Of a stretch of 64,000 bases of DNA, positions 1 through 45,779 are shown in pieces; position 1 is the stretch's first letter; each line of letters starts with the position of its first letter. Under the pieces are notes generated by a model. That model saw only the letters and a program-made list of their open reading frames with translations. It did not search any database and was not told where the DNA came from. Where the stretch lies: the sequence record PZ172995.1; one strand, 5' to 3'. Position numbers and translations under genes: made by a program. The DNA is from a phage.

Positions 1-12
1 GCCCCCTTAACA

Positions 13-980
13 TTTTCTTAACAATTTCTTAACAATCCCTACATAGTTATGCTTTTAAGGTACTTGTTAGCAACTTGTTAGCCCCTTGTTAAATCTCTGT
101 TAAAACCACGTAAAAGCCTTGTAAGAGCCTTTGACATAGCCTATAAAGCCTCTGTAAAGCCCTATAAATAGCTTTCTGTATAGTTGGGGTGTAATTACTA
201 GGAAGAGACTAAAAAGAGCTTATAAGGAGCTATAAAGGGCTTTTAAGAGGGCTATTTAAAGGGTCACTAAGAGAGAAAGGGAACGATAAGAAAAGAGATA
301 GTGACCATGTTAATAGCTTGTTAAAAAGATTAAACACTTGTTAGAAACTTGTTAATTATCTTAACAAAATAACTCTTTAAAATTAACTTGTTAGCTCTTG
401 TTAGTCATCTGTTAAGACACTGTAAAGCCTATGTATCAACTGTTAAGAAACTGTTAAGTTCTTGTTAAAACTGTTAAGAATCTGTTAAGACCTCTGAAGA
501 GATGTTAAGAGGTTGTAAGAACTGTTAAGAGATTGTTAATGATATTTTAAAATTCTGCAAAGGGGATGTTACAGGGCTGTTAAGGGCTACCAAGCAGATA
601 TACATCTTTTACAGATATTTTTGAGTTCCTTCAAAGACCCTAAAAAATGACTTGATAGTCCTATTTTATAAAAATTTTAAAATTCTGAATAATTACCTAG
701 ACAGTCTTTTAAAAATACAGGCATAAACAGGCTTATAAGATACCTTGTTAATACCGTGTTAGACCTTGTGAGATAAGGTCTGTAAAGATATTCCTGTTAA
801 GTTTGTTAAAACAGTCTATATAGAGGCTTAGTAATACCTAGTGAACACCTATAGAGGGTAACATAGCTGACATAGAGATTAAGAGGTGTATAGGGGCTTC
901 TAAGAGGCTATAGAGAGATGGTTAAGGTGATTGTATAGGTTGTTAAGAAGGCTTGTTAGAAGGCTTGTTAGAGGGCTATT
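13..980. repeat. Dense array of about 30 degenerate short repeats (core YTGTTAR, e.g. CTTGTTAG, CTGTTAAG) in a non-coding region of about 1.2 kb
   Basis: Read directly: clusters at 13-40 (opposite orientation), 61-110, 305-545, 741-830, 931-975; no convincing ORF with RBS in 1-1190. Confidence 0.75.
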
Positions 981-1191
981 TAGAAGGTTTATACAGAGTG
1001 GCTATTAAGACCACTAGATAGATACTAAGATACTATATAGTACTATATAACTATATAGAGAGTAAGCTTAAGAAGGATGTTAAGAAGGGTAGATATTTTA
1101 TTCACATATGATGGTGACCCAGAGGTTGGAACAACCGATAAAATTTTATAAAAATTAAAAAGCCCCCAATTAAGGAGGCTCTTAAGATATT

Positions 1192-1740
1192 TTAAACCAG
1201 TGTTTCCAGAACTGTCTTCAGTGATGACTTGGTTGTCTGATAAAAATGAGTAAATCCATTGTTGTTATCAAATACCTGCATCATGATATCATCTCCCTTA
1301 ATTGGGTACACTCGGATATCATAGTGAAAACCATTAAAGACACAAGAACCACTACAGAATGCTCTAAAGTCATCTACTGAGATATACTCTTCATGACCTG
1401 TGATTTTTATACAAACACCTTTACTCGGTCTCTTAGGGTTGATATCTTCCATTACAGACATACTCTGTCCACCAAGAGATACCATAGTGACCACTTTACG
1501 GTTCTTCTGTTTAAAGTACATCTTAACTTTCTGCAAAGTGTCTTCATAGAACGGATAAGATTTCTCTACAAAGACTCCTTCAAGTGGGTCTTTACCATTT
1601 TTAACTTCTCTGTAACCCCGTACTGCAAAAACAATCTGTTTTAATCTGTCAAGACTTTCTTCAGAGAGTGCTTCTTGAGCATCACTCCAGTCAAGGACTA
1701 GATAGTTACCTTCAACATCTTTTAAGTTATCTTTTTCCAT
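1192..1740 (-). CDS. hypothetical protein
   Basis: ORF track 1192..1785 begins at a TTG; first ATG at 1740 avoids overlap with the upstream gene. Confidence 0.55.
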   Translation of the reverse strand: MEKDNLKDVEGNYLVLDWSDAQEALSEESLDRLKQIVFAVRGYREVKNGKDPLEGVFVEKSYPFYEDTLQKVKMYFKQKNRKVVTMVSLGGQSMSVMEDINPKRPSKGVCIKITGHEEYISVDDFRAFCSGSCVFNGFHYDIRVYPIKGDDIMMQVFDNNNGFTHFYQTTKSSLKTVLETLV

Positions 1741-1753
1741 ATCTATCACACCA

Positions 1754-2218
1754 TTATCGTAAAACTTGGTAATCTGGGACTGCAAACTTGTTGTCTTTGT
1801 TTTTAATGAGGTCTTCTTTTGTTACAAAGAATGTAAGCCCACACAAGTGTGTATAGTGGCTATCATACTCAAATACTTTAAGTAAGTATTCTCCATCATC
1901 ATAAACATGCTCTACTACACCTTTTGCAACAATCTTTCCAGTCTTGAAGTCTTTAAGGTGGTATACATTACCAACTTTAGGAACTGTTTTCATCTCAGGT
2001 TCTTTTAGCTTCTCACCAACTTCTACATCACCTAGTAAGTGAGAACTTTCAAAAGCTACATATTGCATATAAGCCTCTGAGCATTCCCAGATAAAACAAT
2101 GTACAAGAACCTTAGCAGCATGTCTTGAGCAATTCAACTTATCACAAATTTCTTTGTACATTTCATCTTTAGTTGAGTTATCAAGCATTGCTTTTCGAAC
2201 TGTTTCTTTAATTTTCAT
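1754..2218 (-). CDS. hypothetical protein
   Basis: ORF with ATG and GGGAG RBS. Confidence 0.6.
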   Translation of the reverse strand: MKIKETVRKAMLDNSTKDEMYKEICDKLNCSRHAAKVLVHCFIWECSEAYMQYVAFESSHLLGDVEVGEKLKEPEMKTVPKVGNVYHLKDFKTGKIVAKGVVEHVYDDGEYLLKVFEYDSHYTHLCGLTFFVTKEDLIKNKDNKFAVPDYQVLR

Positions 2219-2636
2219 AAGCTCCCCGAATAACCCTATTAAGCATCTCTAAAGTCAGCTTTCCAGATTCTAAATGTGGCACAATAAGTTTTAAAGCTTC
2301 TTCAACATCATGCACAACATCTATTATACCTTCTGCATAGGCTTCTACAAGGATATCTTTTACATTTTGTGATTTACCTTTTTGTGGTATCACTAGACGC
2401 ATATCAAACTCATTTGCTTGAGGATGGTTCTTACCTTGCCAGTAACCATCTTTGTTAAAGCTGATGTAGTCACCGTGGTAAAAGTGTACACCATTAGCTT
2501 TAAACTTCTCCAGCACAAGGCATTGAATTGGGTATTCAGTATTCCACTCCCTGACTCCTATAACCTTCACTGTTGCGATGTACTCCTGTGTTTTTGCATC
2601 TATGATGTCAAGTTCTTGACCAGCTATGATTTGCAT
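2208..2636 (-). CDS. hypothetical protein
   Basis: ORF with ATG and AAGGTAG RBS; overlaps neighbour by a few nt. Confidence 0.6.
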   Translation of the reverse strand: MQIIAGQELDIIDAKTQEYIATVKVIGVREWNTEYPIQCLVLEKFKANGVHFYHGDYISFNKDGYWQGKNHPQANEFDMRLVIPQKGKSQNVKDILVEAYAEGIIDVVHDVEEALKLIVPHLESGKLTLEMLNRVIRGAYEN

Positions 2637-2690
2637 ATTCGCTACCTTCTAAGTTCCTACAAAGGGGCTATCAAGTAACCCCTCAAGTTG

Positions 2691-2915
2691 TTACTCAGAC
2701 TTTTCAGTCTTCTTATCAGATTTCTTACTAGTCTTCTTCTCAGCTTTCTGCTCAGGTTCCTTCTCAGAAGTTGCCTTGATAACCATATCAAGAAGCTCTG
2801 ATAAGTCACTCTTCAGCAAAGTAACAGGCTGCTCATTGTAGAAGTTTTTGTCAAGATAAACTTTGAACTCTTCAATAGAAGGAAATCCAAAAATTGGTAC
2901 AGGTGTCTTAGTCAT
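2691..2915 (-). CDS. hypothetical small lysine-rich protein
   Basis: ORF with GGAGA RBS; K/E-rich C-terminus. Confidence 0.5.
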   Translation of the reverse strand: MTKTPVPIFGFPSIEEFKVYLDKNFYNEQPVTLLKSDLSELLDMVIKATSEKEPEQKAEKKTSKKSDKKTEKSE

Positions 2916-2991
2916 TACTTAGTTTCTCCATAGGCATCTTTCAAGATTGCCTTGTTAATCATTTCAGCGATTGCAAAACGAACACATACAG

Positions 2992-3495
2992 CTATAATTG
3001 TAGGTTGCATTCTTTACTTACCTCTTCAAGTTTAACCTCAGAGTCCTTAAGTCGTTTCTTATGAACTCTAAATCTCATTAGTGCGATGATGATACCAACT
3101 AAAGGAACAGCATACAAGTACCAGACATCATATACCTTTGCAGTAATCTGTGTAATGGTCAAGTCTTGAGCTATGGAACTGATTGCTGATACTGCCAGTA
3201 ATGTTGCTAAGAAAAATGCCAGTACCATTACCGTACTTAAACAACCTCTGGCATGGTGTTCATGCTTAATGCACTTATTCTTTTCGTCAACAACCCTATT
3301 GTAGTCGTTTGTAAAGTCTCTGTAGAAAGCTTTCAAGTATTCTTTATTGTAGCCTTCAAAGCAACCTGTACCGTACCAATAATCACCACCAAAATGTGCT
3401 ATGATACCAGTATCCCCATTTGGTTTAGTTACTCTCAAAGATGTGTGATGACGAGTATCTTGATAGTCTATTTTGTATCTTTCTTCGTAAATCAT
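2992..3495 (-). CDS. hypothetical membrane protein (two predicted TM helices near C-terminus)
   Basis: Track start 3525 is GTG without RBS; ATG at 3495 has GAGAGGGA RBS and ATGA overlap with upstream stop; hydrophobic segments VMVLAFFLATLLAV and AVPLVGIIIALM. Confidence 0.6.
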   Translation of the reverse strand: MIYEERYKIDYQDTRHHTSLRVTKPNGDTGIIAHFGGDYWYGTGCFEGYNKEYLKAFYRDFTNDYNRVVDEKNKCIKHEHHARGCLSTVMVLAFFLATLLAVSAISSIAQDLTITQITAKVYDVWYLYAVPLVGIIIALMRFRVHKKRLKDSEVKLEEVSKECNLQL

Positions 3496-11380: not shown

Positions 11381-11457
11381 CTCTGTTTAGCTCAGCTTGG
11401 TAGAGCGTTCCGTTTGGGGCGGTAAGGCCGGAGGTTCAAGTCCTCCAACAGAGACCA
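11381..11457 (+). tRNA. tRNA-Pro (TGG)
   Basis: Hand-folded cloverleaf: acceptor CTCTGTT/AACAGAG, anticodon loop TTTGGGG, T-arm GGAGG-TTCAAGT-CCTCC, CCA encoded. Confidence 0.75.
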
Positions 11458-11464
11458 AATTAAT

Positions 11465-11542
11465 GTTCCAGTAGACAAAACGGTAAAGTCACCACTCTTT
11501 CAAAGTGGATATTTGAGGGTTCAAATCCCTTCTGGAACGCCA
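11465..11542 (+). tRNA. tRNA-Glu (TTC)
   Basis: Acceptor GTTCCAG/CTGGAAC, anticodon stem CCACT/AGTGG with loop CTTTCAA, T-loop TTCAAAT, CCA encoded. Confidence 0.75.
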
Positions 11543-11547
11543 GTTTT

Positions 11548-11623
11548 GACAGAAGACCAATTACAGCAAACTTAATCTACTCATCTGACACGAAATCGGA
11601 CAAAGAAGATATTTGGTCTGGTC
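11548..11623 (+). ncRNA. conserved hairpin element, copy 1 (basal stem CAGAAGACC / GGTCTGG, loop with CAGCAA)
   Basis: GACAGAAGACCA pairs with TGGTCTGGTC around a loop of about 50 nt; same stem in three further copies. Confidence 0.5.
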
Positions 11624-11632
11624 ATTAAGAAT

Positions 11633-11709
11633 TGCGGGTATAGAGAAAGGGCGTCTCACATGTCTCATTAGCATGGTATCGGCAGGTTCGACTCCTGCAC
11701 CCGCCTCCA
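11633..11709 (+). tRNA. tRNA-Met (CAT), irregular acceptor stem
   Basis: D-stem GAGA/TCTC, anticodon stem CATGT/GCATG with loop CTCATTA, T-arm GCAGG-TTCGACT-CCTGC; acceptor pairing imperfect. Confidence 0.55.
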
Positions 11710-11714
11710 ATTTT

Positions 11715-11778
11715 GCAGAAGACCGTATGCAGCAACAAACTACTTTTTTTGCGGATAAAAGAAAAAACACGGTCTGGC
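11715..11778 (+). ncRNA. conserved hairpin element, copy 2
   Basis: GCAGAAGACCG ... CAGCAA ... CGGTCTGGC. Confidence 0.5.
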
Positions 11779-11788
11779 AATATATTAA

Positions 11789-11865
11789 GGTTAGGAAGCA
11801 CATAAGGTATGTGCGGTCGCCTGTTAAGCGAATGGCACAGGGTTCGAATCCCTGACTAACCGCCA
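11789..11865 (+). tRNA. tRNA-Asn (GTT)
   Basis: D-stem GCAC/GTGC, anticodon loop CTGTTAA, T-arm CAGGG-TTCGAAT-CCCTG, CCA encoded. Confidence 0.7.
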
Positions 11866-11874
11866 AATTTAAAT

Positions 11875-11962
11875 GTGTCGTTATCCCGTAGATGGTAGCG
11901 GTGGGGACTGTAAATCCCTTGTCATTGAGACTCGGTAGGTTCGACTCCTACACGGCACACCA
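11875..11962 (+). tRNA. tRNA-Tyr (GTA), long variable arm
   Basis: Acceptor GTGTCGT/ACGGCAC, anticodon loop CTGTAAA, long variable arm, T-arm GTAGG-TTCGACT-CCTAC, CCA encoded. Confidence 0.7.
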
Positions 11963-11968
11963 AATAAA

Positions 11969-12046
11969 GGTTATGTAGTTTAATCTGGTTAAAATACTCC
12001 CCTGTCACGGGAGATGATGAGGGTTCAAATCCCTTCGTAACCGCCA
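11969..12046 (+). tRNA. tRNA-Asp (GTC)
   Basis: Anticodon stem CTCCC/GGGAG with loop CTGTCAC, T-arm GAGGG-TTCAAAT-CCCTT, CCA encoded. Confidence 0.8.
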
Positions 12047-12129
12047 AATTATAATAAGTATTTCAAAATGATGTTTGAGAGGGCTATTTAGCCCCTCCCT
12101 TAAAGAGTTCTTACGAGTATTCTTTAAAG

Positions 12130-12212
12130 GAGCAGAAGACCAAATTCAGCAAGTACGTATGATATTTTCAAGCCAATTTAATTTTGAAAAAATTTAAAAC
12201 TTGGTCTGGCTC
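12130..12212 (+). ncRNA. conserved hairpin element, copy 3
   Basis: GAGCAGAAGACCAA pairs with TTGGTCTGGCTC; loop contains CAGCAA. Confidence 0.5.
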
Positions 12213-12221
12213 AACAAATTT

Positions 12222-12357
12222 ACAGAAGACCGTTTACAGCAAAACTTAAACAATCTATTTCTCCGGTAAAGAAAAGGCGAAGGTTCGATTCCTTCACTCG
12301 GCAGATGTCGAGTTGGTGTAATGGTAGCACTTAAGATGACAAACAACGGTCTGGTAA
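12222..12357 (+). ncRNA. conserved hairpin element, copy 4, enclosing a tRNA-like module (T-arm hairpin, acceptor-like hairpin, D-arm-like hairpin); candidate Y-RNA-like RNA
   Basis: Basal stem ACAGAAGACCGTT / AACGGTCTGGTA; inside: GAAGG-TTCGATT-CCTTC (12279-12295), ACTCGGC-AGAT-GTCGAGT (12296-12313), GTGT-AATGGTA-GCAC (12316-12330). Confidence 0.45.
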
Positions 12358-12503
12358 TTATCTTTGTAGGTGAGCTATTAAGCTTACTTGTGAGTATGCG
12401 ACCACAAAGGGTGAAAGGGCAAATTCTAGATTTAAACCCAACAAGGCACATCGCTACAGACCTTAAGCAAGTCTGGGTAGCTTATCTACAAAGATAATTT
12501 AAT

Positions 12504-12579
12504 GGAAGTGTAGCAGAATGGTGATGCGGCAGACTTTTAATCTGACAGGCGATGGGTTCGAATCCCTCCACTTCTACCA
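12504..12579 (+). tRNA. tRNA-Lys (TTT)
   Basis: Acceptor GGAAGTG/CACTTCT, anticodon loop CTTTTAA, T-loop TTCGAAT, CCA encoded; paralogous to the Lys(CTT) tRNA at 13820. Confidence 0.7.
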
Positions 12580-12583
12580 ATAT

Positions 12584-12660
12584 GGTTCAGTCGCAGATAA
12601 GGTAATGCAGGGGTCTCATAAGCCCTATGAATGTGGGTTCGATTCCCATCTGAACCTCCA
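12584..12660 (+). tRNA. tRNA with CAT anticodon (Met or lysidine-Ile)
   Basis: Acceptor GGTTCAG/CTGAACC, anticodon loop CTCATAA, T-arm GTGGG-TTCGATT-CCCAT, CCA encoded. Confidence 0.7.
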
Positions 12661-12661
12661 A

Positions 12662-12737
12662 GCTGGTATAGTTAAGAAGGTTATAACACTCCCCTGATAA
12701 GGGAATATCGGTGGTTCGATTCCACCTACCAGTACCA
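12662..12737 (+). tRNA. tRNA-Ile (GAT)
   Basis: D-stem GTTA/TAAC, anticodon loop CTGATAA, T-arm GGTGG-TTCGATT-CCACC, CCA encoded. Confidence 0.75.
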
Positions 12738-12752
12738 ATTTCAATAAAGTTG

Positions 12753-12781
12753 TTGACATTGATATGTGACTATTTTATAGT
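12753..12781 (+). promoter_or_regulatory. sigma70-like promoter (TTGACA, 17 nt, TATAGT) inside the tRNA array
   Basis: TTGACA 12753-12758, TATAGT 12776-12781; downstream about 300 nt has no tRNA or ORF. Confidence 0.55.
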
Positions 12782-12832
12782 AACTGAAAATGATTCAGCA
12801 TATGTATAATTCAAACACCAATACATGAGCGT

Positions 12833-12904
12833 TAGACGTAACACAATGTGGGGAAATTTGTTGTACATATTCTGAATAGTTTTCGTTGCGTAGCGTCTAT
12901 TTTG
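12833..12904 (+). terminator. putative structured element ending in a T-run (possible sRNA 3' end)
   Basis: TAGACG ... CGTCTA stem enclosing about 55 nt, followed by TTTTGC. Confidence 0.3.
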
Positions 12905-13074
12905 CAAATTTAAAATAAATGCAAACGACAATGTTTTTCTGGCAGTAGCTTGATAGGCTAAACACCAGTGAGGTCTTCCAATCCCTCATCAAAGAATTTG
13001 GCGTACTAGCCCACGGTATGATTAATAAGGTGGGCATCTTTAAGGGCTTTCTAAGAGAGTCTTTAAAGATTAAT

Positions 13075-13151
13075 GCACCCTTAGTTCAATTGGATAGAGC
13101 AACGGTCTTCTAAATCGTTAGTTACAGGTTCGAATCCTGTAGGGTGTGCCA
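13075..13151 (+). tRNA. tRNA-Arg (TCT)
   Basis: Acceptor GCACCCT/AGGGTGT, anticodon loop CTTCTAA, T-arm ACAGG-TTCGAAT-CCTGT, CCA encoded. Confidence 0.75.
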
Positions 13152-13293
13152 AATAGTTAGCAGATTGCTTAGACGACCTTATCGGGTCTCCGCGTAAGGA
13201 GGTGGTCTGTATCTCATGTTTTCCAGAACATGTAAATAATCTGAGAAGGGGCTTTACAGTGTTGCGAAAATACGGTAAGCTTCGAATTATAGT

Positions 13294-13376
13294 GTGGGAC
13301 GATGTTAAGACTCTAAGGCATGAGCAACGGCCTCCAAAACCGTTTCAAAGGGGTTCAACTCCTCCGTCCCATGCCA
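13294..13376 (+). tRNA. tRNA-Trp (CCA)-like, atypical length and D-region
   Basis: Acceptor GTGGGAC/GTCCCAT, anticodon loop CTCCAAA, T-loop TTCAACT, CCA encoded; about 7 nt longer than canonical. Confidence 0.45.
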
Positions 13377-13389
13377 AAGTCTTATTAGG

Positions 13390-13477
13390 GGTAGGTAGCG
13401 GCTAATGGCAGCCAAACAGTCTTGAAAACTGTTGCAACTGTAGAGATACGGTGAGGGTTCGACTCCTTTACTTACCA
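13390..13477 (+). tRNA. tRNA-Ser (TGA), long variable arm
   Basis: Acceptor GGTAGGT/ACTTACC, anticodon stem ACAGT/ACTGT with loop CTTGAAA, variable arm about 20 nt, T-loop TTCGACT. Confidence 0.7.
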
Positions 13478-13634
13478 CCTAATAAGATTTTACACCGTCC
13501 ATGCTTGCTCGCATTTTCGGTTTATCCCTCGTGTATTGTCGTACACACTGATAAAGCACCTAGTAGGTGTCACGGAGAAGAGATAATATCAAGCTCTCCA
13601 AAGGTTCTAGTCACCGGATTAAACAAGACTATGC

Positions 13635-13656
13635 AAAGACCAATTTAGGTCTTTTT
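13635..13656 (+). terminator. putative Rho-independent terminator
   Basis: AAAGACC-AATTTA-GGTCTTT followed by TTT. Confidence 0.45.
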
Positions 13657-13735
13657 AGAGGGCTTCTAAGGTTATTACAGCTTGTTGTGGAACCTTGTTG
13701 CTTAGGTTCTTAGAAGTTCTCTAAAAAGATTTAAT

Positions 13736-13812
13736 GCACCTATAGCCCAACTGGTAGAGGCAGCAGACTTAGAATCTGCTCAGTGTGAGTTCGAATCTCT
13801 CTAGGTGTACCA
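13736..13812 (+). tRNA. tRNA with TAG anticodon (Leu by anticodon), short variable arm
   Basis: Acceptor GCACCTA/TAGGTGT, anticodon stem GCAGA/TCTGC with loop CTTAGAA, T-loop TTCGAAT, A73, CCA encoded. Confidence 0.65.
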
Positions 13813-13819
13813 AATTAAT

Positions 13820-13895
13820 GCAGGTGTAGCAAAATGGTTATGCGGCTGACTCTTAATCAGTAAGACGATGGGTTCAATTCCCTCCACCTGTACCA
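13820..13895 (+). tRNA. tRNA-Lys (CTT)
   Basis: Acceptor GCAGGTG/CACCTGT, anticodon loop CTCTTAA, T-loop TTCAATT, CCA encoded. Confidence 0.7.
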
Positions 13896-13901
13896 AACAT
13901 T

Positions 13902-13977
13902 GGGGTCATAGTTTATATGGTTAAAATTCGAGTTTTGCAAACTTGGGAACTGAGTTCAATTCTCAGTGACTCCACCA
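13902..13977 (+). tRNA. tRNA-Ala (TGC)
   Basis: Acceptor GGGGTCA/TGACTCC, anticodon loop TTTGCAA, T-arm CTGAG-TTCAATT-CTCAG, CCA encoded. Confidence 0.7.
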
Positions 13978-13983
13978 ATTAGT

Positions 13984-14058
13984 GCATCCATAGTTTAAAC
14001 GGGAAAATTACAGTCTTCCAAACTGAGGTTGAGGGTTCGATTCCCTCTGGATGCTCCA
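13984..14058 (+). tRNA. tRNA-Gly (TCC)
   Basis: Acceptor GCATCCA/TGGATGC, anticodon loop CTTCCAA, T-loop TTCGATT, CCA encoded. Confidence 0.75.
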
Positions 14059-14065
14059 AATTAAT

Positions 14066-14141
14066 GCTCCTATCGTATAATTGGCTATTACGGTTGCCTT
14101 GTAAGTAACTTATCAGGGTTCGAATCCTTGTGGGAGCACCA
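14066..14141 (+). tRNA. tRNA-Thr (TGT)
   Basis: Acceptor GCTCCTA/TGGGAGC, anticodon loop CTTGTAA, T-arm CAGGG-TTCGAAT-CCTTG, CCA encoded. Confidence 0.7.
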
Positions 14142-14238
14142 ATTTAGAGGTCAAGTGAAAGACCGCTTTGAGTCAACTGAAGACCGTAACAAATCCCACG
14201 GAGTTGAGTTAGCGGCACAACTTCAGACCTCTTTCCAC

Positions 14239-14313
14239 ACTCGCTTAGTTTATATGGTAAAACATCACCCTTACAAGATGAAGAAAAAGGTTCAAGTCCT
14301 TTAGTGAGTACCA
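14239..14313 (+). tRNA. tRNA-Val (TAC)
   Basis: D-stem GTTT/AAAC, anticodon loop CTTACAA, T-arm AAAGG-TTCAAGT-CCTTT, CCA encoded. Confidence 0.7.
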
Positions 14314-14314
14314 T

Positions 14315-14392
14315 GTTCCAGTATCCCAATTGGCAGAGGATGCAAGCTCAAACCTTGCACTAGTGACGGTTCGAATCCGTCTTGGAACACCA
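14315..14392 (+). tRNA. tRNA with CAA anticodon (Leu by anticodon), short variable arm
   Basis: Acceptor GTTCCAG/TTGGAAC, anticodon stem GCAAG/CTTGC with loop CTCAAAC, T-arm GACGG-TTCGAAT-CCGTC, A73, CCA encoded. Confidence 0.65.
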
Positions 14393-14397
14393 ATTTT

Positions 14398-14473
14398 GCA
14401 GGATTAGTTCAAATGGATAGAGCAACAGTCTACGAAGCTGTTAATAGGGGTTCGAGTCCCTTATCCTGCGCCA
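14398..14473 (+). tRNA. tRNA-Arg (ACG)
   Basis: Acceptor GCAGGAT/ATCCTGC, anticodon loop CTACGAA, T-loop TTCGAGT, CCA encoded. Confidence 0.75.
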
Positions 14474-14491
14474 GATAAGTAAGAGTGATTT

Positions 14492-14734
14492 ATGCAAACA
14501 TTAATCGTCGTTGAACATGAAAATTCCAATAGCATTGAGTTTGTAAGGGTTCCCACTATAGATACCCACATTTTCTTGAAAGTAGGCTGGGAATGTGACC
14601 CAATAAGAGTAGAAAAATTTATTGGTCATTACTTTGGTGGAAGACAACTTAAAAGTGTTAATTTTGAGACAATGTTACCAGAAAACTCAGAAACAAATAA
14701 TAATGTTTACCTCCTTACAAGGATTAGACAATGA
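14492..14734 (+). CDS. hypothetical protein encoded inside the tRNA array
   Basis: ORF with RBS; ATGA overlap with the next gene. Confidence 0.5.
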   Translation: MQTLIVVEHENSNSIEFVRVPTIDTHIFLKVGWECDPIRVEKFIGHYFGGRQLKSVNFETMLPENSETNNNVYLLTRIRQ

Positions 14735-15288
14735 GATATTTGAAGTATGTTTCATGGATTTTCTTAGCTTTGCTAGAGCCATTTGCAGCAATCTTAGCAG
14801 TCATCTTAGCACCTTTTGTAGTTCTATTCTACAGTGAGAAGAGAGGACACTTACCTTTCGGCTTCAGATGGATGGAAACATATGATAACCCAATTGATGG
14901 TGATAAAGGTCATGTCGAACGATGGGCTAAGATTAGAAAGATTGGTAAGCTTGGTATCTATATGCAGAGAGTTGGTTGGCTCTGGAGAAACAAAGCTTAT
15001 AACTTCTCTTACCATGTGTTAGGAAGAGATGTAAAAGATGTTACTAAGTGGAAAGGTAATATCAATGTAAGTTCTAACCCTGAAGATAATCAGACAGGTT
15101 ATCTCCTAATGTGGAACAGTAATGCTTGGGGATTATTCGCTTTTATCCCATCAATTAAACTCTTTGGTAAGCAATTCTACTGGAGAATTTATGTTGGATG
15201 GAAACTTAAAAGTGTTGTTCCAAAAGAAAGAGCATTCTCAAGGGAAAGAGTTATGTTGGCATTCTTTATTCATCCACTGAGAAAGTAA
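14731..15288 (+). CDS. hypothetical Trp-rich membrane protein encoded inside the tRNA array
   Basis: N-terminal hydrophobic helix WIFLALLEPFAAILAVILAPFVVLF in the 185-aa translation. Confidence 0.6.
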   Translation: MRYLKYVSWIFLALLEPFAAILAVILAPFVVLFYSEKRGHLPFGFRWMETYDNPIDGDKGHVERWAKIRKIGKLGIYMQRVGWLWRNKAYNFSYHVLGRDVKDVTKWKGNINVSSNPEDNQTGYLLMWNSNAWGLFAFIPSIKLFGKQFYWRIYVGWKLKSVVPKERAFSRERVMLAFFIHPLRK

Positions 15289-15296
15289 AGATTTAA

Positions 15297-15372
15297 AGGG
15301 GATTAGTTTACAAGGTTAAAACCTCGGTCTTTGAAATCGAAGAAGTTGGTTCAATTCCAACATCCCCCGCCA
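15297..15372 (+). tRNA. tRNA-Gln (TTG)
   Basis: Anticodon stem TCGGT/ATCGA with loop CTTTGAA, T-arm GTTGG-TTCAATT-CCAAC, CCA encoded. Confidence 0.7.
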
Positions 15373-15374
15373 AT

Positions 15375-15453
15375 GCTCCATTACTCCAATTGGCAGAGAG
15401 GCCAGACTTAAAATCTGTGTTATGTATCGGTTCGAATCCGATATGGAGTACCA
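15375..15453 (+). tRNA. tRNA with TAA anticodon (Leu by anticodon), short variable arm
   Basis: Acceptor GCTCCAT/ATGGAGT, anticodon loop CTTAAAA, T-arm ATCGG-TTCGAAT-CCGAT, A73, CCA encoded. Confidence 0.65.
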
Positions 15454-15458
15454 AATTT

Positions 15459-15534
15459 AGCGGTATAGCATAACTGGCAATGCAGCAGTCTCTGAAGCTG
15501 TCTTATTAAGGTTCAAATCCTTATGCCGCTGCCA
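15459..15534 (+). tRNA. tRNA-Gln (CTG)
   Basis: D-stem GCAT/ATGC, anticodon loop CTCTGAA, T-arm TAAGG-TTCAAAT-CCTTA, CCA encoded. Confidence 0.7.
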
Positions 15535-15565
15535 CTTCTAAGGATTCTTACGAGAGTCCTTAAAT

Positions 15566-15641
15566 GTGGCCTTATCATAAATGGTAATGACCCATGCTGT
15601 GAACATGGTCTATACGGGTTCAAATCCCGTAGGTCACCCCA
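15566..15641 (+). tRNA. tRNA-His (GTG)
   Basis: D-stem TCAT/ATGA, anticodon stem CCATG/CATGG with loop CTGTGAA, T-arm ACGGG-TTCAAAT-CCCGT, CCA encoded. Confidence 0.75.
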
Positions 15642-15646
15642 ATTTA

Positions 15647-15723
15647 TAGTCCAAGTAGCTTATATGGTTAAAGCGCGTGTCTGAAAAACATGAGAAGAGG
15701 GTTCAAATCCCACTGGACTACCA
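15647..15723 (+). tRNA. tRNA-Phe (GAA)
   Basis: Acceptor TAGTCCA/TGGACTA, anticodon stem CGTGT/ACATG with loop CTGAAAA, T-loop TTCAAAT; linker lengths slightly irregular. Confidence 0.65.
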
Positions 15724-15739
15724 ATTTCAAAGGTGCTTA

Positions 15740-16474
15740 ATGAAAGAGATGACAGGACAAGGTAAGGAGATTTTTAATCTCTTAAAAACCGGTAGAGGGT
15801 TTTCTAATCCCCTTATTACTGGTGCAGCAGTTCTCGGTGGAACCGTAGCTGCCTCTACATCACTTGTAAGCTCTATTAGCTCTGTAACAGACCCTACAAT
15901 AAAGGATAAACTTGTTGCCGCTGGACTTACAACAGTTCTGCTTAACAGCTTTACAACGAGTCTGACAAGCACTACATCCACCACTAAGACATTGACAGAT
16001 TACGGTCAAAAATCAATTGATGAGTTTTCATCACGTATGCAGGTAGCAAAAGGATATTCCAATGTTATGGGTGCAGCAGGAGAGCAAGTTGGTTGTACAC
16101 CATTTAGTGGTATTATGGGTGTTGCTACAGAATATGGTCAAAAAGCTATTGACACGATTAACAACACGTTAGACAGTGTTAACGGCGTGTTAAGTGACTT
16201 ACAGGATGCTATTGATAAAGGTCTTGATACTGTTTCTGATTTAGCTAACCAAGCTGTTAGCAAGATTAATGAAGGTATCTCGAAGATTACAGCTTATGCA
16301 GATGAAGTTGTGCAGATGATTGAAGAAGAAGCTGCCCTTATTGCAGAGTACCTTAAAACGAATATCAATGGGTTCTTAGCAGGTATTTTACCAGACTGGT
16401 TTGATGATGCTTGTAAAACTGGTGTGATTGACACTATTGCAACACCAGAAATGAAGAACGCATTACAGAAATAA
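15740..16474 (+). CDS. hypothetical Ser/Thr-rich protein encoded inside the tRNA array
   Basis: Track start 15677 lies inside tRNA-Phe; ATG at 15740 has AAAGGTG RBS; low-complexity S/T region then a helical C-terminal half. Confidence 0.6.
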   Translation: MKEMTGQGKEIFNLLKTGRGFSNPLITGAAVLGGTVAASTSLVSSISSVTDPTIKDKLVAAGLTTVLLNSFTTSLTSTTSTTKTLTDYGQKSIDEFSSRMQVAKGYSNVMGAAGEQVGCTPFSGIMGVATEYGQKAIDTINNTLDSVNGVLSDLQDAIDKGLDTVSDLANQAVSKINEGISKITAYADEVVQMIEEEAALIAEYLKTNINGFLAGILPDWFDDACKTGVIDTIATPEMKNALQK

Positions 16475-16475
16475 T

Positions 16476-16568
16476 GGAAGATTAACCCTAAAAGGTAAGG
16501 GAGCAGTTTGCTAAACTGCCAGTAGCTGAGAAATCGGTGTACCAGTTCAAGTCTGGTATCTTCCCCCA
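16476..16568 (+). tRNA. tRNA-Ser (GCT), long variable arm
   Basis: Acceptor GGAAGAT/ATCTTCC, anticodon stem GCAGT/ACTGC with loop TTGCTAA, variable arm about 21 nt, T-arm ACCAG-TTCAAGT-CTGGT, CCA encoded. Confidence 0.75.
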
Positions 16569-16572
16569 ATTT

Positions 16573-16648
16573 GAATCCGTGACAGAAATGGCTATGTGCC
16601 TGTCTGCAAAACAGGTTTATAAGGGTTCGAGTCCCTTCGGATTCTCCA
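16573..16648 (+). tRNA. tRNA-Cys (GCA)
   Basis: Acceptor GAATCCG/CGGATTC, anticodon stem CCTGT/ACAGG with loop CTGCAAA, T-arm AAGGG-TTCGAGT-CCCTT, CCA encoded. Confidence 0.8.
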
Positions 16649-17071: not shown

Positions 17072-17092
17072 TTCTATTTGCGGAGGTGCTTA

Positions 17093-18694
17093 ATGGACTT
17101 AAATGCTGTTAAGCAGAAGCGAGTGGAAGATGTTAGGAAAGTCCTAGCTGGAGAGTTGGGGCTTTCTGATGAAGTAAAAGAAATTATCAAATCATTCGGT
17201 AAAGACCCCTCTAAATTCCTTCCAACTCAAATTCTGACTTTATTAAGATACACACCAGACCAAGTTAGACTTATCTTCAAATTGATGACTGATAAGAACT
17301 ATGTAGCCCCTCAGCCGGGTTCTCAAGAGGTGTTTTTAAATACTAATGCTGACTTGGTTTTATATGGTGGTGCTGCTGGTGCTGGTAAAACTGCTGCATT
17401 GTTAATGGACTCTTTAAGGTTTATTGAAGACCCTAACTATAATGCTGTATATTTCCGTCGAAATACAACACAGTTACAAGGTGGTTTATGGCCTGCTGCA
17501 AAGAAACTATTTGGTAAGTTTGGTGGGGTTCCGCACGAGCAGAAGATGACTATCACATTCCCTTCTGGGGCAACTATCAAGTTCACCTACCTAGAACTTG
17601 AAAAGCACGCTGAAGGTCATCAGGGTATTGAATACTCAGCTATCTATTTTGACGAAGGTACACACTTCTCTGCTTCACAGATTTCATACCTACAGACCCG
17701 TCTACGTTCTGGTGCTGAAGGTGACTCATACATGAAGATTTCTATGAACCCAGATAGAGACCACTTCATTTATGATTGGGTAGAACCATTCTTAGATGAA
17801 GAAGGTTACCCAGACCCTGAGAAGTGCGGTCGTATTCGTTGGTATGTTATGAATGATGGTGTGATGGTTTCTGATTGGGAGAGAGACAAGATTCTTGAAA
17901 TGTTCCCTCTTGAGATTCCTCAGACATACACCTTCATCTCTGGTACGATTGATGATAACCCAATTCTTGACTTCTTAGAACCTAAATATCGTGGTAAGTT
18001 GGAAAACAACACACCTGTAAACGTTGCAAGACTTCGTTTCGGTAACTGGAAGGCTCGTGCAGAAGGTTCAAACTATTGGCAAAGACAATGGTGTGAGATT
18101 GTTGATTCACTCCCAGAAGATGTGTTTGATGTCAGAGCATGGGACTTAGCAGCAACTTTACCATCTGAGATTAACCCTAATCCAGACTGGACAGCAGGTG
18201 TTAAGATGGGTAAATCTAAAAAAGACGGTTGCTATTATATCATTGATGTAGTAAGATTTAGAGATAGACCCTCTGGAGTCGAAACACAAATTAATTTGAC
18301 TGCTGAAAGTGACGGTAAGCGAACTGGTATTTTTATCCCTCAAGACCCAGGCGCTGCTGGTAAATCCTATGCAACATCCCTCATCAGGAAACTTGCCGAG
18401 AAAGGTTATCGCGCAAGAGCTAAACCAACAAATAAAGATAAAGTTACCCGCTTTGCGGGATTTTCTGCTGCTTCTGAAGCTGGACTTGTAAAAGTCTTGA
18501 GAGGAAGTTGGAACGAAGCTTATTTCCAAGAACTTGAAGGTTTTTGTGGTGATGGCAAAACTAAAGATGACCAAGTGGATGCTACCAGTGATGCTTTCAA
18601 CAGTCTTAACGAAGTTAAATTATTCAAGCCACCATCAATGGGTGCTCACACAGACTTAGTGAGAGGAAACCCATACGAGGGGCTTAGACGTTGA
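17093..18694 (+). CDS. terminase large subunit
   Basis: Walker A GGAAGAGKT and Walker B IYFDEGTH in the translation; C-terminal nuclease-like domain; ATG at 17093 with GGAGGTG RBS (track start 17078 is TTG). Confidence 0.9.
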   Translation: MDLNAVKQKRVEDVRKVLAGELGLSDEVKEIIKSFGKDPSKFLPTQILTLLRYTPDQVRLIFKLMTDKNYVAPQPGSQEVFLNTNADLVLYGGAAGAGKTAALLMDSLRFIEDPNYNAVYFRRNTTQLQGGLWPAAKKLFGKFGGVPHEQKMTITFPSGATIKFTYLELEKHAEGHQGIEYSAIYFDEGTHFSASQISYLQTRLRSGAEGDSYMKISMNPDRDHFIYDWVEPFLDEEGYPDPEKCGRIRWYVMNDGVMVSDWERDKILEMFPLEIPQTYTFISGTIDDNPILDFLEPKYRGKLENNTPVNVARLRFGNWKARAEGSNYWQRQWCEIVDSLPEDVFDVRAWDLAATLPSEINPNPDWTAGVKMGKSKKDGCYYIIDVVRFRDRPSGVETQINLTAESDGKRTGIFIPQDPGAAGKSYATSLIRKLAEKGYRARAKPTNKDKVTRFAGFSAASEAGLVKVLRGSWNEAYFQELEGFCGDGKTKDDQVDATSDAFNSLNEVKLFKPPSMGAHTDLVRGNPYEGLRR

Positions 18695-37590: not shown

Positions 37591-39957
37591 ATGGCAGATT
37601 ACAAATTGAGTCAGTTAAACTCAATCGACACAATTCGTTCAGAAGACCTATTGCATATCAGAGTTAAGAAAAGACCTGAAATGTTGGGTGACGAAGACCG
37701 TAGAATGACCTATCAAGACTTCTTAGCTTCCTTCAAACTAGAAAGGTTTGTTCAGATTGCTGGGAGTAATATGACTGGGGATTTAGGTATTGTCAAGCTA
37801 CTTTACGGTGGAAAGATTGTATTTGACCCTACAGGCTCTTCTGAGATTACTATTGGGGATGTTTTAAAGACTTTTAAACTTAATGCAAGTGGCCTTAAAC
37901 TCACTATTGCAGACTCTTCAAGGTCAGCAACTGTTTATCACACTCTGAATAAGCCAAGCCCTAATGAGCTTGGTATGAGAACTAATGAAGAGAATGATGC
38001 AAGATATGCAAGGCTTGCTGCAAATAACATCTTTACATCCCAACAGACTATCCAAGCAAATGGTGAAGGTATTAGGTTAAAAAACTCTTCTGAGAACTCA
38101 CCGTTGTATATCAGAGGTCAGGATAGTGCTGGTGAGAATAGATGGTATATCGGTAATGGTTCAGGGGGTGATAATGTTACTATCCGCAACCACAAGACAG
38201 ACTGTGAAGTTATTCTATCTAGTGTCGTGGCTATCAATAAAACATTAAGCATCACTGGTCAAGTCAAACCTTCAGATTTCTCTAACTTAGATGCTAGATA
38301 CTTCACTCAGACAGTTGCTAATCAGAGATTTGCACAGTTAGCTGGTAATAACACTTTTACAGGTGCTAATACATTTAGGACTATGAGTATTATCTCAAAT
38401 GCTGCTGCTATCACACTACAATGTGCATCAGCAAATGAATCCCTGTATCTACTTGCAAAAGATTATCAAGGTGGTAACTTATGGTATGTTGGTAAAGGTA
38501 GCTCAGGTGATGGTGTAACTATCTACAACTATACCACTAACACCTCTTTGGTCTTAGATGCTGCTGGAGTATCAGCAAATAAAAATGTCAGAATCACTGG
38601 TCAAGTTCAACCTTCTGATTGGGCTAATATTGACTCTAGATACATTCCAGCAGGAACTTTGAGTAACCTTGCTAAACTGAGTGATGTGAATACTTTTAGG
38701 TCTGCGCAAGTTATTAAACAGAATGGTCCAGTGTTGCAGCTAAGGAATACTATTCAGGACAGGGAGCTATATATCTCTGCTCATAATGCTGATGATGTTA
38801 GAAAGTGGTACATCGGTAACGGGGATGCTAACCCAGCAAGGCTTATTATCCACAACGACAGAACTGCAACTACGATTTATATGCAAGACGATTTCTTGCT
38901 GAATAAAACAGTTAGAATCACTGGTCAAGTCCAACCTTCAGATTTCTCTAACTTAGATGCTAGATATTATACGCAATCTGTAGCAAACTCTAGGTACATG
39001 CTTGCTGTCTCTACTGGTTCTGGTACAGAGGCTGGTGATGGTGATGGTATTGCTTGGAATGCTAGGACTGGTCTGTATAATGTTACAGGGAAATCTGGTT
39101 GTTCAACACAGCTAGTTTATCAAATGTTTATCGGTGGTGGCTCAACACCAACTGCACAGTTGAAGTTTAGCTACAGGAATGGTGGTGTCTGGTATAGGAC
39201 AGCAAGAGATGGCTATGGATTTGAGAATAGCTGGGCTAAAATCTATACAGACCAAGATAAGCCAACCCCTTCAGATATCGGTGCATACACTAAAGCTGAA
39301 ACTGACCAGAAGATTGCAGAAGCAATTAGTGACTCTACAGACCTGAATAAAATCTATCCAGTAGGTATTGTAACGTGGTTTAACAGTAATGTTAACCCTA
39401 ATACAGCACTTCCTGGTCTAACTTGGACGTACCTGAATAATGGTGTTGGCAGAACTATTAGGATTGCAGCAGCAAATGGTTCAGATGTTGCTACAACTGG
39501 TGGTTCAGACTCTGTAACGTTATCTGTTGGTAACTTACCTTCACACACACATAGTTTCTCTGCTACCACTTCATCATTTGATTATGGTACTAAGACTTCT
39601 AGCACAACTGGTAACCATAACCACAACAGAGGTAACATGGAAATTTCTGGTGTGGTTGGTTGGTTCAGAAGTGATAACAGTGCATTCTACACTGCGAGCG
39701 GTGCGTTTCAGATGGGTAGTTCTCAGGCTTCACATGGCTTCACAGGCTCTAACTTCACTTACGGTGCTGCTGCTGATTTCCACGCGTCAAGAACTTGGAC
39801 AGGTGTAACCAACACAACTGGCAACCACGCGCACACTGTTGGTATTGGTGCTCACAGCCACACAGTTAGCGGTAACACAGGTGGTACTGGTTCTGGTTCA
39901 GCATTTAGCGTCACTAACCAGTTCTACAAGTTAATGGCTTGGGTAAGGACTGCTTAA
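37591..39957 (+). CDS. long tail fibre protein with internal repeats and His-rich HxH repeat tip
   Basis: 788 aa; repeated ITGQVxPSD(F/W)SNLD(A/S)RY modules; C-terminal SHTHSF, NHNHN, NHAHTV, AHSHTV motifs. Confidence 0.75.
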   Translation: MADYKLSQLNSIDTIRSEDLLHIRVKKRPEMLGDEDRRMTYQDFLASFKLERFVQIAGSNMTGDLGIVKLLYGGKIVFDPTGSSEITIGDVLKTFKLNASGLKLTIADSSRSATVYHTLNKPSPNELGMRTNEENDARYARLAANNIFTSQQTIQANGEGIRLKNSSENSPLYIRGQDSAGENRWYIGNGSGGDNVTIRNHKTDCEVILSSVVAINKTLSITGQVKPSDFSNLDARYFTQTVANQRFAQLAGNNTFTGANTFRTMSIISNAAAITLQCASANESLYLLAKDYQGGNLWYVGKGSSGDGVTIYNYTTNTSLVLDAAGVSANKNVRITGQVQPSDWANIDSRYIPAGTLSNLAKLSDVNTFRSAQVIKQNGPVLQLRNTIQDRELYISAHNADDVRKWYIGNGDANPARLIIHNDRTATTIYMQDDFLLNKTVRITGQVQPSDFSNLDARYYTQSVANSRYMLAVSTGSGTEAGDGDGIAWNARTGLYNVTGKSGCSTQLVYQMFIGGGSTPTAQLKFSYRNGGVWYRTARDGYGFENSWAKIYTDQDKPTPSDIGAYTKAETDQKIAEAISDSTDLNKIYPVGIVTWFNSNVNPNTALPGLTWTYLNNGVGRTIRIAAANGSDVATTGGSDSVTLSVGNLPSHTHSFSATTSSFDYGTKTSSTTGNHNHNRGNMEISGVVGWFRSDNSAFYTASGAFQMGSSQASHGFTGSNFTYGAAADFHASRTWTGVTNTTGNHAHTVGIGAHSHTVSGNTGGTGSGSAFSVTNQFYKLMAWVRTA

Positions 39958-40036
39958 TCCCTTGTTGACTGATTGTTAAGATGGTGTTAATATTCTTTAT
40001 GGGTATTCTCACCATCTTGGCTGATGAGGTGATTAA

Positions 40037-40234
40037 ATGCCTACAATCCTAGCAATTCTTCTAAAAAATCTAGGTAGCTTCTTCTGGAAACTCATTTTAT
40101 CCCTTCTAAGTGAATACATGATTGAGAAAGTGTTCTTTAAGCTTGCAAGATATCTTGCTAGTAAGACAGACACACCTATTGATGATGAGTTCGTAGATAA
40201 CTTAGAAAAAGCTTTTAAGGGGGAGAATAAATGA
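40037..40234 (+). CDS. hypothetical small protein with hydrophobic N-terminus
   Basis: 65 aa, ILAILLKNLGSFFWKLILSLL segment. Confidence 0.45.
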   Translation: MPTILAILLKNLGSFFWKLILSLLSEYMIEKVFFKLARYLASKTDTPIDDEFVDNLEKAFKGENK

Positions 40235-40602
40235 AGTGGCTAGAGGAAGCTTTTAAAAATAATATTGGTGCAATTGTAGTTGGTATTTTTAGTGTTATTG
40301 GGATGTATACCACGATGCAAGTTTCAAGTGGTAAACAAGAAGTGTCTATCACAACAAAATTACAGCAGCTAGATAATTATTCCAAAAGTAATTATTCAGC
40401 TATTCGTGATTTACAGTCTGATATGAGGCTGCTTCAGCTAGGGATGGAGAACCAGAAAGTCCAGTTAGAGAATGTTAAGGGTGAGAACGCAAAACTTACT
40501 AAGACTCTTGATAAATTCTCTGATAGTGTGAACAATCTGGCTCAATCAGTATCAGCCCTCCAAGCTATTACTGAAAAGAACACAAAGAATACTGAAAAGT
40601 AA
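40231..40602 (+). CDS. hypothetical membrane-anchored coiled-coil protein
   Basis: N-terminal TM IGAIVVGIFSVIGMY then heptad-like region. Confidence 0.5.
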   Translation: MKWLEEAFKNNIGAIVVGIFSVIGMYTTMQVSSGKQEVSITTKLQQLDNYSKSNYSAIRDLQSDMRLLQLGMENQKVQLENVKGENAKLTKTLDKFSDSVNNLAQSVSALQAITEKNTKNTEK

Positions 40603-44947: not shown

Positions 44948-45553
<606 letters not shown>

Positions 45554-45695
45554 TTAGTTGATTGTTAAGTTGTTTGTAAAGAACCCTCAACAGAAGACTC
45601 TTTAGAAACTTGGTAGATTTTTAACGTGGCTACTACCATCCACCCTTACCGCGACACACCGAACCAGACCTTACACCACCTTACACCACCCCACC

Positions 45696-45779
45696 TCATT
45701 AAAAGACCCTCTTAAAAGGCCTTTTAAAAAGGTAAGTCTCATTTTAATGTAGCTGAGACTAACTACCCATACCTCACAT
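45696..45779. repeat. about 83-bp intergenic repeat, copy B
   Basis: See copy A; flanked by C/A-rich tracts with repeated TTACACCACC. Confidence 0.7.

Follow-up and report, generated by a model that had tools for sequence, protein, structure and literature searches.

The first 1190 nt of a 64,000-nt stretch of phage DNA (sequence record PZ172995.1; the whole stretch is called the window below) carry a dense array of the heptamer YTGTTAR. We find that most of this region is a mosaic of degenerate ~11-bp units with the consensus aacyTGTTAAga, of which ~30 retain the core (aac)YTGTTAAG(a), and that the array is organised around both boundaries of what is predicted to be the direct terminal repeat (DTR) of a felixounavirus genome. 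Our preferred explanation, to which we give about an even chance of being right, is that the units are phased binding sites for the DNA-recognition component of the machinery that packages the genome and generates its ends. That the units are binding sites at all is suggested by their helical phasing, their strand bias and the preferential conservation of their cores across genera, and to this extent an earlier proposal that the region is a protein-binding array has gained indirect support. The original prediction, made from the letters alone, had offered a replication origin, a partition or packaging site, a genome terminus and a transcription-control hub as possible roles. The terminus and packaging role is the one that fits, as positions 1-591 match the DTR of relatives whose termini were mapped experimentally or with PhageTerm, and the array is arranged around the two borders of that repeat.

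The predicted terminal repeat and the concatemer junction

The first 1200 bases of the window match more than 250 phage records. Almost all of these, with 85-96% identity, belong to Felixounavirus, a genus of Felix O1-like myoviruses that infect Escherichia, Salmonella and Shigella. Mooglevirus sequences match less closely (~76%), and Erwinia phages of the genus Kolesnikvirus match over one short segment. The window is therefore part of a Felixounavirus (Ounavirinae) genome of ~88 kb, and the large terminase subunit that it encodes (TerL, 17078-18694) is ≥99% identical to the TerL of Felixounavirus relatives. Position 1 is the start base of two terminus-oriented records, vB_EcoM_D4 (PP886228; hereafter D4) and ZX4221 (OR498728). 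In D4 the first 581 bp are repeated with 100% identity as the last 581 bp, and ZX4221, the work of an independent laboratory, has an equally exact repeat of 591 bp with boundaries as in D4. Direct terminal repeats were reported by PhageTerm for D4 (PMC11737134) and, with a length of 613 bp, for Ro111lw (PMC6454146), and Bal31 and run-off sequencing gave a DTR of 608 bp for UAB_Phi87, the large terminase of which was reported to group with the terminases of DTR phages (PMC4837284). The boundary strings of the window are GCCCCCTTAACA at position 1 on the left and, on the right, GGGCTACC followed after the cut at 591 by AAGCAGATATACA; both strings occur in UAB_Phi87, 614 bp apart as against the 608 bp of the experiment. 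Homology thus points to positions 1-591 as the DTR of the genome from which the window comes, and position 1 would be its left physical end.

In circularly permuted records (nataliec, Felix O1, SUSP2 and Moogle) the repeat is present once, in the middle of a gene-free stretch of ~1.6-1.7 kb. Upstream of this stretch lie + strand genes with a terminator, and downstream lie - strand genes with the terminator found at 1158-1183 of the window, which closes the non-coding junction and carries that annotation in Moogle and other relatives. The region would therefore be the concatemer junction between two convergent, terminator-ended transcription units, with 592-1157 as the left-unique remainder of that junction. 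The repeat measures 569, 570, 579, 581, 591, 611 or 614 bp in relatives, and most of the differences from 591 bp amount to about one or two units (10, 12 and 20-23 bp). Similarly, alignment gaps inside the repeat are mostly 11 or 22 bp long (one is 17 bp), so that most changes inside the repeat preserve the helical register; gaps in the left-unique flank are 12, 23, 25 and 32 bp long.

That felixounaviruses have a DTR is already established knowledge. The felixounavirus literature that we searched reports the length of the repeat and gives no account of the motif array, of its conservation in the Ounavirinae or of the mirror-image boundary elements described below. The paper on the Felix O1 genome (Whichard 2010) describes other repeats and on this subject mentions no more than "short terminal repeats" and a missing small terminase subunit (TerS). 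A few GenBank records mark uncommented "repeat_region" features of 30-46 bp inside the region.

A phased and strand-biased array

YTGTTAR occurs 27 times in the region, always within 18-971, and 103 times in the whole window. Since 2000 dinucleotide-preserving shuffles of the region contain it only 1.5 ± 1.2 times (maximum 7), the saturation that had been claimed for the region is real. The claim that copies lie in both orientations needs qualification: minus-strand copies do exist, but 24 of the 27 heptamers and 29 of the 34 TGTTA cores are on the plus strand, a strong bias. The five minus-strand cores are at 8, 19 and 30 (a set with 11-bp spacing that occupies 8-34, at the left end), at 362, within a palindrome, and at 859. 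Overall, the core is ~15-fold denser here than in the rest of the window, and CTTGTTAG has seven copies in the region as compared with one in the other 63 kb. The other short motifs named in the original prediction are likewise present (TTTTAAAA three times, GGCTATTTA twice and ACTATATA three times), and the lack of coding capacity is borne out, with no open reading frame (ORF) longer than 35 aa. The region has a GC content of 33.5% as against ~39% for the window, and an Rfam search of 1-1400 (E ≤ 1) returned no family match, only a sub-threshold chance match on the terminator.

The spacing of the cores is strongly ordered. Distances between plus-strand cores peak at 11, 20-22, 31-33, 42, 51-53 and 62-64 bp, and the best-fitting period is 10.25-10.5 bp; because these spacings are multiples of ~10.5 bp, the copies lie on one face of the helix. 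An ~11-bp periodicity is also seen in stretches without the exact motif: self-identity at a lag of 11 is 0.42-0.52 over most of the region, with 0.47-0.52 in 1-300 and 100-300 and 0.40-0.43 in 600-745 and 810-940, compared with 0.276 ± 0.026 in background windows of 300 nt. By the same measure it was not seen in 970-1190. Tandem Repeats Finder reports arrays of 11- and 12-bp units at 6-36, 438-539 and 940-987. In addition, the 10-11-bp periodicity of AA/TT dinucleotides is the strongest of all 600-nt windows in the 64 kb (2.19; median 0.48).

Moreover, the array is polar with respect to the repeat. The cores at 8, 19 and 30, beside the left terminus, point leftwards; from 63 to the pair GATGTTACAGGGCTGTTAAGGGCTACC at the right boundary nearly every core points rightwards. 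Mirror-image CCCTTAACA elements stand at both boundaries, 3-5 nt from each inferred 5' end, with the arrays internal to both. On the top strand the left boundary reads 5'-G-CCCCCTTAACA, and on the bottom strand the right boundary reads 5'-GGTAGCCCTTAACA, each preceded by TGCTW. Read inwards, the left top strand is ...TGCTA/GCCCCCTTAACAttttCTTAACA and the right bottom strand ...TGCTT/GGTAGCCCTTAACAgcccCTTAACA, where the slash marks the boundary. This mirror arrangement is kept in Felix O1, SUSP2, Moogle, Sf17 and KMM4, and two of the four copies of TGTTAAGGG in the 64 kb, both strands counted, are those at the boundaries. We infer that the polarity of the boundaries is the one required by a scheme of the T7 type, with one nick per strand at opposite borders. 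A GCTAGC palindrome across the left cut of Felix-type junctions was also considered; it is not conserved in Sf17, KMM4 or M7 and was set aside as a coincidence. The right-unique flank of D4 (3360-3419 of the extracted sequence L004) has two copies of AAAGTTACGTAAA, 22 bp apart, immediately before the left repeat boundary. The element contains the palindrome TTACGTAA and is also found in Felix O1, Moogle and Sf17, with one copy in SUSP2; the pair may be a further recognition element of the junction.

Related motifs had also been predicted at 13680-13720 and 39965-39990, and these do not rise above chance: outside the region there are two TGTTAA pairs against ~0.8 expected. The motif at 13680-13720, in the spacer that precedes a tRNA gene, is CTTGTTG and has no TGTTA core. 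Separately, 39965-39995 contains a sigma70-like promoter, TTGACT-17-TAATAT, the spacer of which holds two TGTTAA copies 11 bp apart. It follows directly after the tail-fibre gene (37591-39957) and lies upstream of two small proteins (40037-40602), and the TGTTAA pair may serve the same binder as an operator, or it may be due to chance.

Conservation and layout of the junction

The junction was compared in an alignment of six genomes from Felixounavirus, Suspvirus and Mooglevirus. Its identity to the Suspvirus and Mooglevirus sequences is 76-80% by MAFFT and 82-84% pairwise, values that aligning repetitive DNA can raise somewhat, as compared with 69-77% DNA identity and 48-57% protein identity for the flanking ORFs. 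The cores stand out within it: 65-74% of exact TGTTA cores are retained at the aligned position in the other genera, as against 37-44% of random 5-mers from the same region. The best-conserved segments are the two repeat boundaries (0.88 on the left and 0.82-0.88 on the right, as the invariant fraction) and the block at 301-367. We also note that the SUSP2 junction (1341-3010 of the extracted sequence L013), which aligns to the window at 80-84%, has a GC content of 34.6%, and that 47.2% is given for the genome of the suspvirus mistaenkt (Olsen et al.). The junction appears either to resist genome-wide compositional drift or to have been exchanged between genera.

Beyond these genera the alignment fades and the array does not. 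In Erwinia phages, blastn detects only 478-604 of the junction query, at 72.7% identity (E = 3e-8). The Erwinia phage M7 (Kolesnikvirus) nevertheless has an exact DTR of 444 bp that is filled with TGTTAAGA, with 27 cores in the first 900 bp; the TerL of phiEa21-4, a kolesnikvirus related to M7, is ~69% identical to that of the window. The layout is also familiar, with inverted copies at the extreme left, then same-strand copies, and more just beyond the repeat, and the right boundary of M7, GGCCACTAA/GTAGATATACA, is homologous to GGCTACC/AAGCAGATATACA in the window. This array is the strongest single result in favour of a function. Constant cores with divergent spacers in four genera would be the signature of a conserved sequence-specific binder, not of slippage. 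The flanks of the M7 junction have motifs of their own: one strand of the ~400 bp before the left boundary, within the right-unique flank (1100-1450 of the extracted sequence L010), has more than 10 copies of (T)CTTCTAAG, a motif different from that of the window, and CTTCTCAG occurs three times at 665-700 of L006. Junction flanks therefore hold genus-specific second motif families. A scan of IMG/VR for TGTTAA-N4-6-TGTTAA-N4-6-TGTTAA (at least 120 loci) revealed, among the matches listed, no further lineage with such an array; the densest of those listed, besides M7, come from unrelated contigs, many of them of giant viruses, and are either coding repeats or perfect microsatellites.

The features of the junction are collected in Table 1. 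About 20 copies of the motif lie inside the repeat, and ~8 further plus-strand copies lie beyond it, at 745-971 and 1078. At the left terminus, Tandem Repeats Finder gives the inverted set a period of 11, 2.8 copies and a 95% match, and positions 1-40 are 88% invariant over the three genera. The degenerate array that follows opens with four exact copies of CTTGTTAG or CTGTTAA at 63-103 and continues with variants such as CACGTAAAAG, CTTGTAAGAG, CTGTAAAG and GCTATAAAGG. The palindrome-containing block after it is near-invariant in Felixounavirus, Suspvirus and Mooglevirus (0.80-0.82). In the main array the copies are spaced by 9-11, 20 or 31 bp, and Tandem Repeats Finder assigns it a period of 11, 9.8 copies and the consensus AACTGTTAAGA. 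The right boundary block, 82-88% invariant over the three genera, consists of an AT-rich tract, GATATTTTAAAATTC, then GATGTTACAGGGCTGTTAAGGGCTACC, which ends the repeat at 591, and then the conserved AAGCAGATATACA outside it. The 13-mer TTTTATAAAAATT has only two copies in the 64 kb, at 661-684 and 1144-1156. The second motif families comprise TATAGAG (819, 850, 909 and 1054), the reverse complement of which, CTCTATA, occurs in the right-unique flank of relatives, a 12-bp array of TTGTTAGAAGGC with 3.9 copies (940-987), and the three copies of ACTATATA (1032-1057).

Table 1. Features of the non-coding junction at the left end of the window (positions in the window)
Feature	Position	Strand	Basis
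Predicted direct terminal repeat, left copy	1-591		Homology to terminus-mapped relatives
Three inverted copies (CTTAACA) at the left terminus, 11-bp spacing; the first is CCCTTAACA at 4-12	6-36	-	Tandem Repeats Finder
Array of degenerate 10-11-bp units	52-262	+	Motif count, lag-11 self-identity
Highly conserved block GTGACCATGTTAATAGCTTGTTAAAAAG, followed by two further motif copies and the perfect palindrome TTGTTAA-TTATC-TTAACAA (349-367)	301-367	+	Alignment
Main array: 12 same-strand YTGTTAR, and a TGTTA core without YTGTTAR at 503	387-539	+	Motif count, Tandem Repeats Finder
Right boundary block of the DTR	541-604	+	Conservation, blastn
Conserved AT-rich near-palindrome CTATTTTATAAAAATTTTAAAATT	661-684		Alignment
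Same-strand copies beyond the repeat: YTGTTAR at 745, 794 and 803; TGTTA core at 757	744-810	+	Conserved context
Second motif families	815-1060	+	Motif count, Tandem Repeats Finder, alignment
Conserved block GATATTTTATTCACATATGATGGTGACCC with DnaA-box-like 9-mer TTATTCACA (1098-1106)	1085-1120	+	Alignment, consensus scan
Intrinsic terminator of the leftward operon (- strand genes, 1192 to ~9000)	1158-1183	-	Ten-pair stem followed by a T-run

Possible functions of the array

In T7, the repeat must be duplicated during packaging, and the outside 3' ends are extended through the repeat (PMC10438801). We propose that something similar takes place here. A putative sequence-specific protein would assemble head-to-tail along the ~11-bp units and would be the part of the packaging and end-forming machinery that recognises the DNA, in a group without a recognisable TerS. 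The assembly would position TerL for a top-strand nick at the left boundary and a bottom-strand nick at the right, in each case beside a mirror CCCTTAACA element. Strand-displacement synthesis would then duplicate the 591 bp, giving each packaged genome a full repeat as in the T7 model, and insertions and deletions of whole units would account for the repeat lengths of 569-614 bp among relatives. That a protein binds the array, what kind of protein it is and how its binding is linked to nicking are all things that we infer.

Several points weigh against this explanation. The right end of the genome lies outside the 64-kb window, so the positions of the termini are taken from relatives, and the reported ends differ by 2-6 nt between methods. 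No binder was identified by PHROGs and Pfam searches of seven ORFs that flank the region and three that lie upstream of TerL, which matched only families of unknown function; in the 66-aa ORF directly upstream of TerL, as in the flanking genes, there was no recognisable DNA-binding or TerS domain, and this ORF had no sequence match in the PDB and only near-identical homologues. Roughly one copy in four is found beyond the repeat, as far as 500 bp away, where a pure cutting signal has no need of it, and the extra conserved blocks (the AT-rich palindromes, TATAGAG and the ACTATATA sets) suggest that the junction has more than one function. The start of the PaP1 record, the DTR of which we take to be 1.19 kb long, has no comparable array. 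TerL of the PaP1 clade, as shown for Pakpunavirus relatives of PaP1, is ~41% identical to that of the window, and the lack of an array at the start of PaP1 implies that the array is not general to this terminase clade. To our knowledge, moreover, the function of the analogous repeats of T7 is not firmly established.

The same observations could also be accommodated by a bolder proposal, which we offer tentatively and regard as rather doubtful. The binder may polymerise as a one-face filament on ~30 to 100 phased 11-bp units over the repeat and its flank, and thereby replace TerS. The outward-pointing ends of such a filament, at the mirror TGTTAAGGG elements, would set the two staggered nick positions. 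The repeat would then be a protein-DNA ruler that sets its own length, possibly coupled to the initiation of replication at the AT-rich tracts. If this were true, DTR generation here would differ in kind from the T7 paradigm.

A replication origin seems to us an unlikely alternative. The repeats would act like iterons, bound by a phage initiator or a host factor, the AT-rich tracts would unwind, and only the boundary blocks would carry packaging signals; an origin could also exist alongside a packaging role. It is true that direct repeats adjoin conserved AT-rich tracts (541-556, 661-684 and 1144-1156), that the region is poor in GC, strongly conserved across genera and free of transcription from either side, and that one sequence in it, TTATTCACA at 1098, matches the DnaA box, where 0.11 matches are expected. 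However, this box is destroyed by a 1-nt deletion in the SUSP2 and Moogle (mooglevirus) genomes, the 11-bp units with their 7-8-bp core are shorter than classical iterons of 17-22 bp, and there are ~30 or more copies over 1 kb instead of 3-6 beside a single unwinding element. No initiator is recognisable beside the region, where the flanking ORFs have no known domains, and GC skew, which turns at ~9, 41 and 51 kb, tracks gene orientation and gives no independent signal at position 1. Nor does an origin predict a switch in orientation and mirror elements just at the borders of the repeat, and the repeat-rich non-coding stretch at 45551-45945 is another candidate for one. We consider it quite unlikely that the array is architectural or protective and unrelated to cutting, with a phage or host protein coating the genome ends to shield them from exonucleases, to organise or condense ejected DNA, to pair repeats for concatemers or to silence read-through. 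Helical phasing on one face, the strongest AA/TT periodicity in the window, which suggests curved DNA, the extension of the array beyond the repeat and its location at both ends of the virion DNA are all compatible with such a role. It leaves unexplained, however, why the boundaries are the most conserved part and why mirror elements stand at fixed distances from the ends. In addition, IHF and pho-box consensus half-sites have no match in the region, a Fis-like site has one match only, and no candidate protein was identified.

It would be tempting to dismiss the array as a neutral satellite, in which ~11-bp units spread by slippage or unequal recombination without any sequence-specific function, as there are unit-sized indels between relatives and a degenerate tandem structure runs through the region. 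This is very improbable in our view, because the TGTTAAG(A) core persists in four genera, including the otherwise non-alignable Kolesnikvirus, cores are retained far better than neighbouring bases, and the region is more conserved than the flanking genes; spacers that vary while cores stay constant are the opposite of what recent slippage would leave. We hold out similarly little hope for a transcription-control hub with clustered promoters or operators for early genes. TTGTTA does resemble a -35 hexamer, the region has nine sigma70-like matches, and a TGTTAA pair sits inside the real-looking promoter at 39965-39995. Yet the flanking genes converge on the region, each set with a terminator at its end and nothing encoded between them, and nine matches are within ~2 s.d. 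of the 5.0 ± 2.3 found in shuffles, with no conserved -35/-10 pair. Conservation of the sole good TTGACA (133-138) does not extend even to Felix O1, and the region matches no Rfam family. The suggested partition site is unsupported as well: the annotations of the D4 record, surveyed at 1-26000 and at its right end without partition gene models, name no partition gene, and the adjoining genes have no known domain. Felixounaviruses are described as strictly virulent.

An array of short reiterated motifs at a DTR concatemer junction is not conceptually unprecedented. When the T7 junction is rebuilt from both ends, it contains 13 exact copies of CCTAAAG on one strand, three inside the 160-bp repeat and the rest in arrays on either side, which were reportedly named SRL and SRR by Dunn and Studier in 1983. 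The felixounavirus junction resembles that of T7 in its predicted short exact DTR at the ends of a non-permuted linear genome, in being non-coding, and in a heptamer reiterated more than 10 times, all or nearly all on one strand, in the repeat and its flanks (13 exact CCTAAAG plus variants there, 27 YTGTTAR here). The two motifs have no sequence similarity, and the arrangements differ: spacing in T7 is 13 bp or irregular and here follows the helical repeat, T7 lacks the inverted set at the left end, and its repeat holds three copies as compared with ~20. T7 also has a small terminase, gp18, and junction promoters (phiOL, phiOR and A0-A3), whereas here we recognise no TerS and no convincing promoter.

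Reiterated terminase sites are known from lambda cosB (R1-R3), from P1 pac, with TGATCA/G hexamers on either side of the cut, and from SPP1 pacL and pacR. In these systems, as may be the case here, several short repeats for the subunit that recognises the DNA flank the cleavage site, and phasing or bending aids the assembly of a nucleoprotein complex. They have 3-7 elements in 100-200 bp, a known TerS or PacA, and cohesive or headful ends, in contrast to ~30 or more elements over 1 kb, exact terminal repeats and a group in which no TerS was found (Whichard 2010). An analogy in geometry, and in geometry only, comes from direct-repeat arrays with a 10-11-bp register that small DNA-binding proteins bind head-to-tail, such as parC of plasmid R1, bound by ParR, and the pho boxes (CTGTCAT-N4-CTGTCAT), to which PhoB, a winged-helix protein, binds. 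A 7-bp core in such a register permits cooperative binding on one face, and CTGTTAAG-AAA-CTGTTAAG resembles a pho box in layout, but the region contains no exact pho-box half-site. The DTRs of other Ounavirinae (UAB_Phi87, 608 bp; Ro111lw, 613 bp; D4, 581 bp; ZX4221, 591 bp; M7, 444 bp) have homologous sequence, the same boundaries and the same array, and differ in nothing essential, only in length by unit-sized indels.

How ends are recognised and duplicated in phages with short exact DTRs is understood, and incompletely, only for T7. Felix O1-like phages are widely used in the typing of Salmonella and E. coli, in biocontrol and in therapy, and are now being engineered, with no defined packaging signal or small terminase. 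The phased TGTTAAG array and the mirror boundary elements provide targets for packaging assays, for engineering and for finding the DNA-recognition protein, and they indicate what to keep in rebooted or minimised genomes and in transducing vectors. The array also explains the breaks and collapses of assemblies at this locus and the variation of repeat length in steps of ~11 bp.

Some further observations concern the rest of the window. The gene-free, repeat-rich stretch at 45551-45945 lies between two - strand ORFs and is made of CA-rich repeats (CACCTTACACCACC) in two units of ~140 bp, each ending in a TTAAAAGACCCTCTTAAAAGG-like sequence. Its self-identity at lags of 10 and 11 (0.42) is the highest outside 1-1190, and it is a candidate for a regulatory region, an RNA or an origin. 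The sequence GATC, for which dinucleotide shuffles give 188 ± 12 copies and a Markov model predicts 213, is absent from 1-64000, and so are 23 six-base palindromes for which base composition predicts ≥8.6 copies each, among them the sites of EcoRI, PstI, BamHI, XhoI, NcoI and NheI. Restriction and Dam sites are avoided here to an extreme degree. Finally, 24 tRNA genes lie on the + strand at 11381-16645 and end just upstream of the TerL gene.

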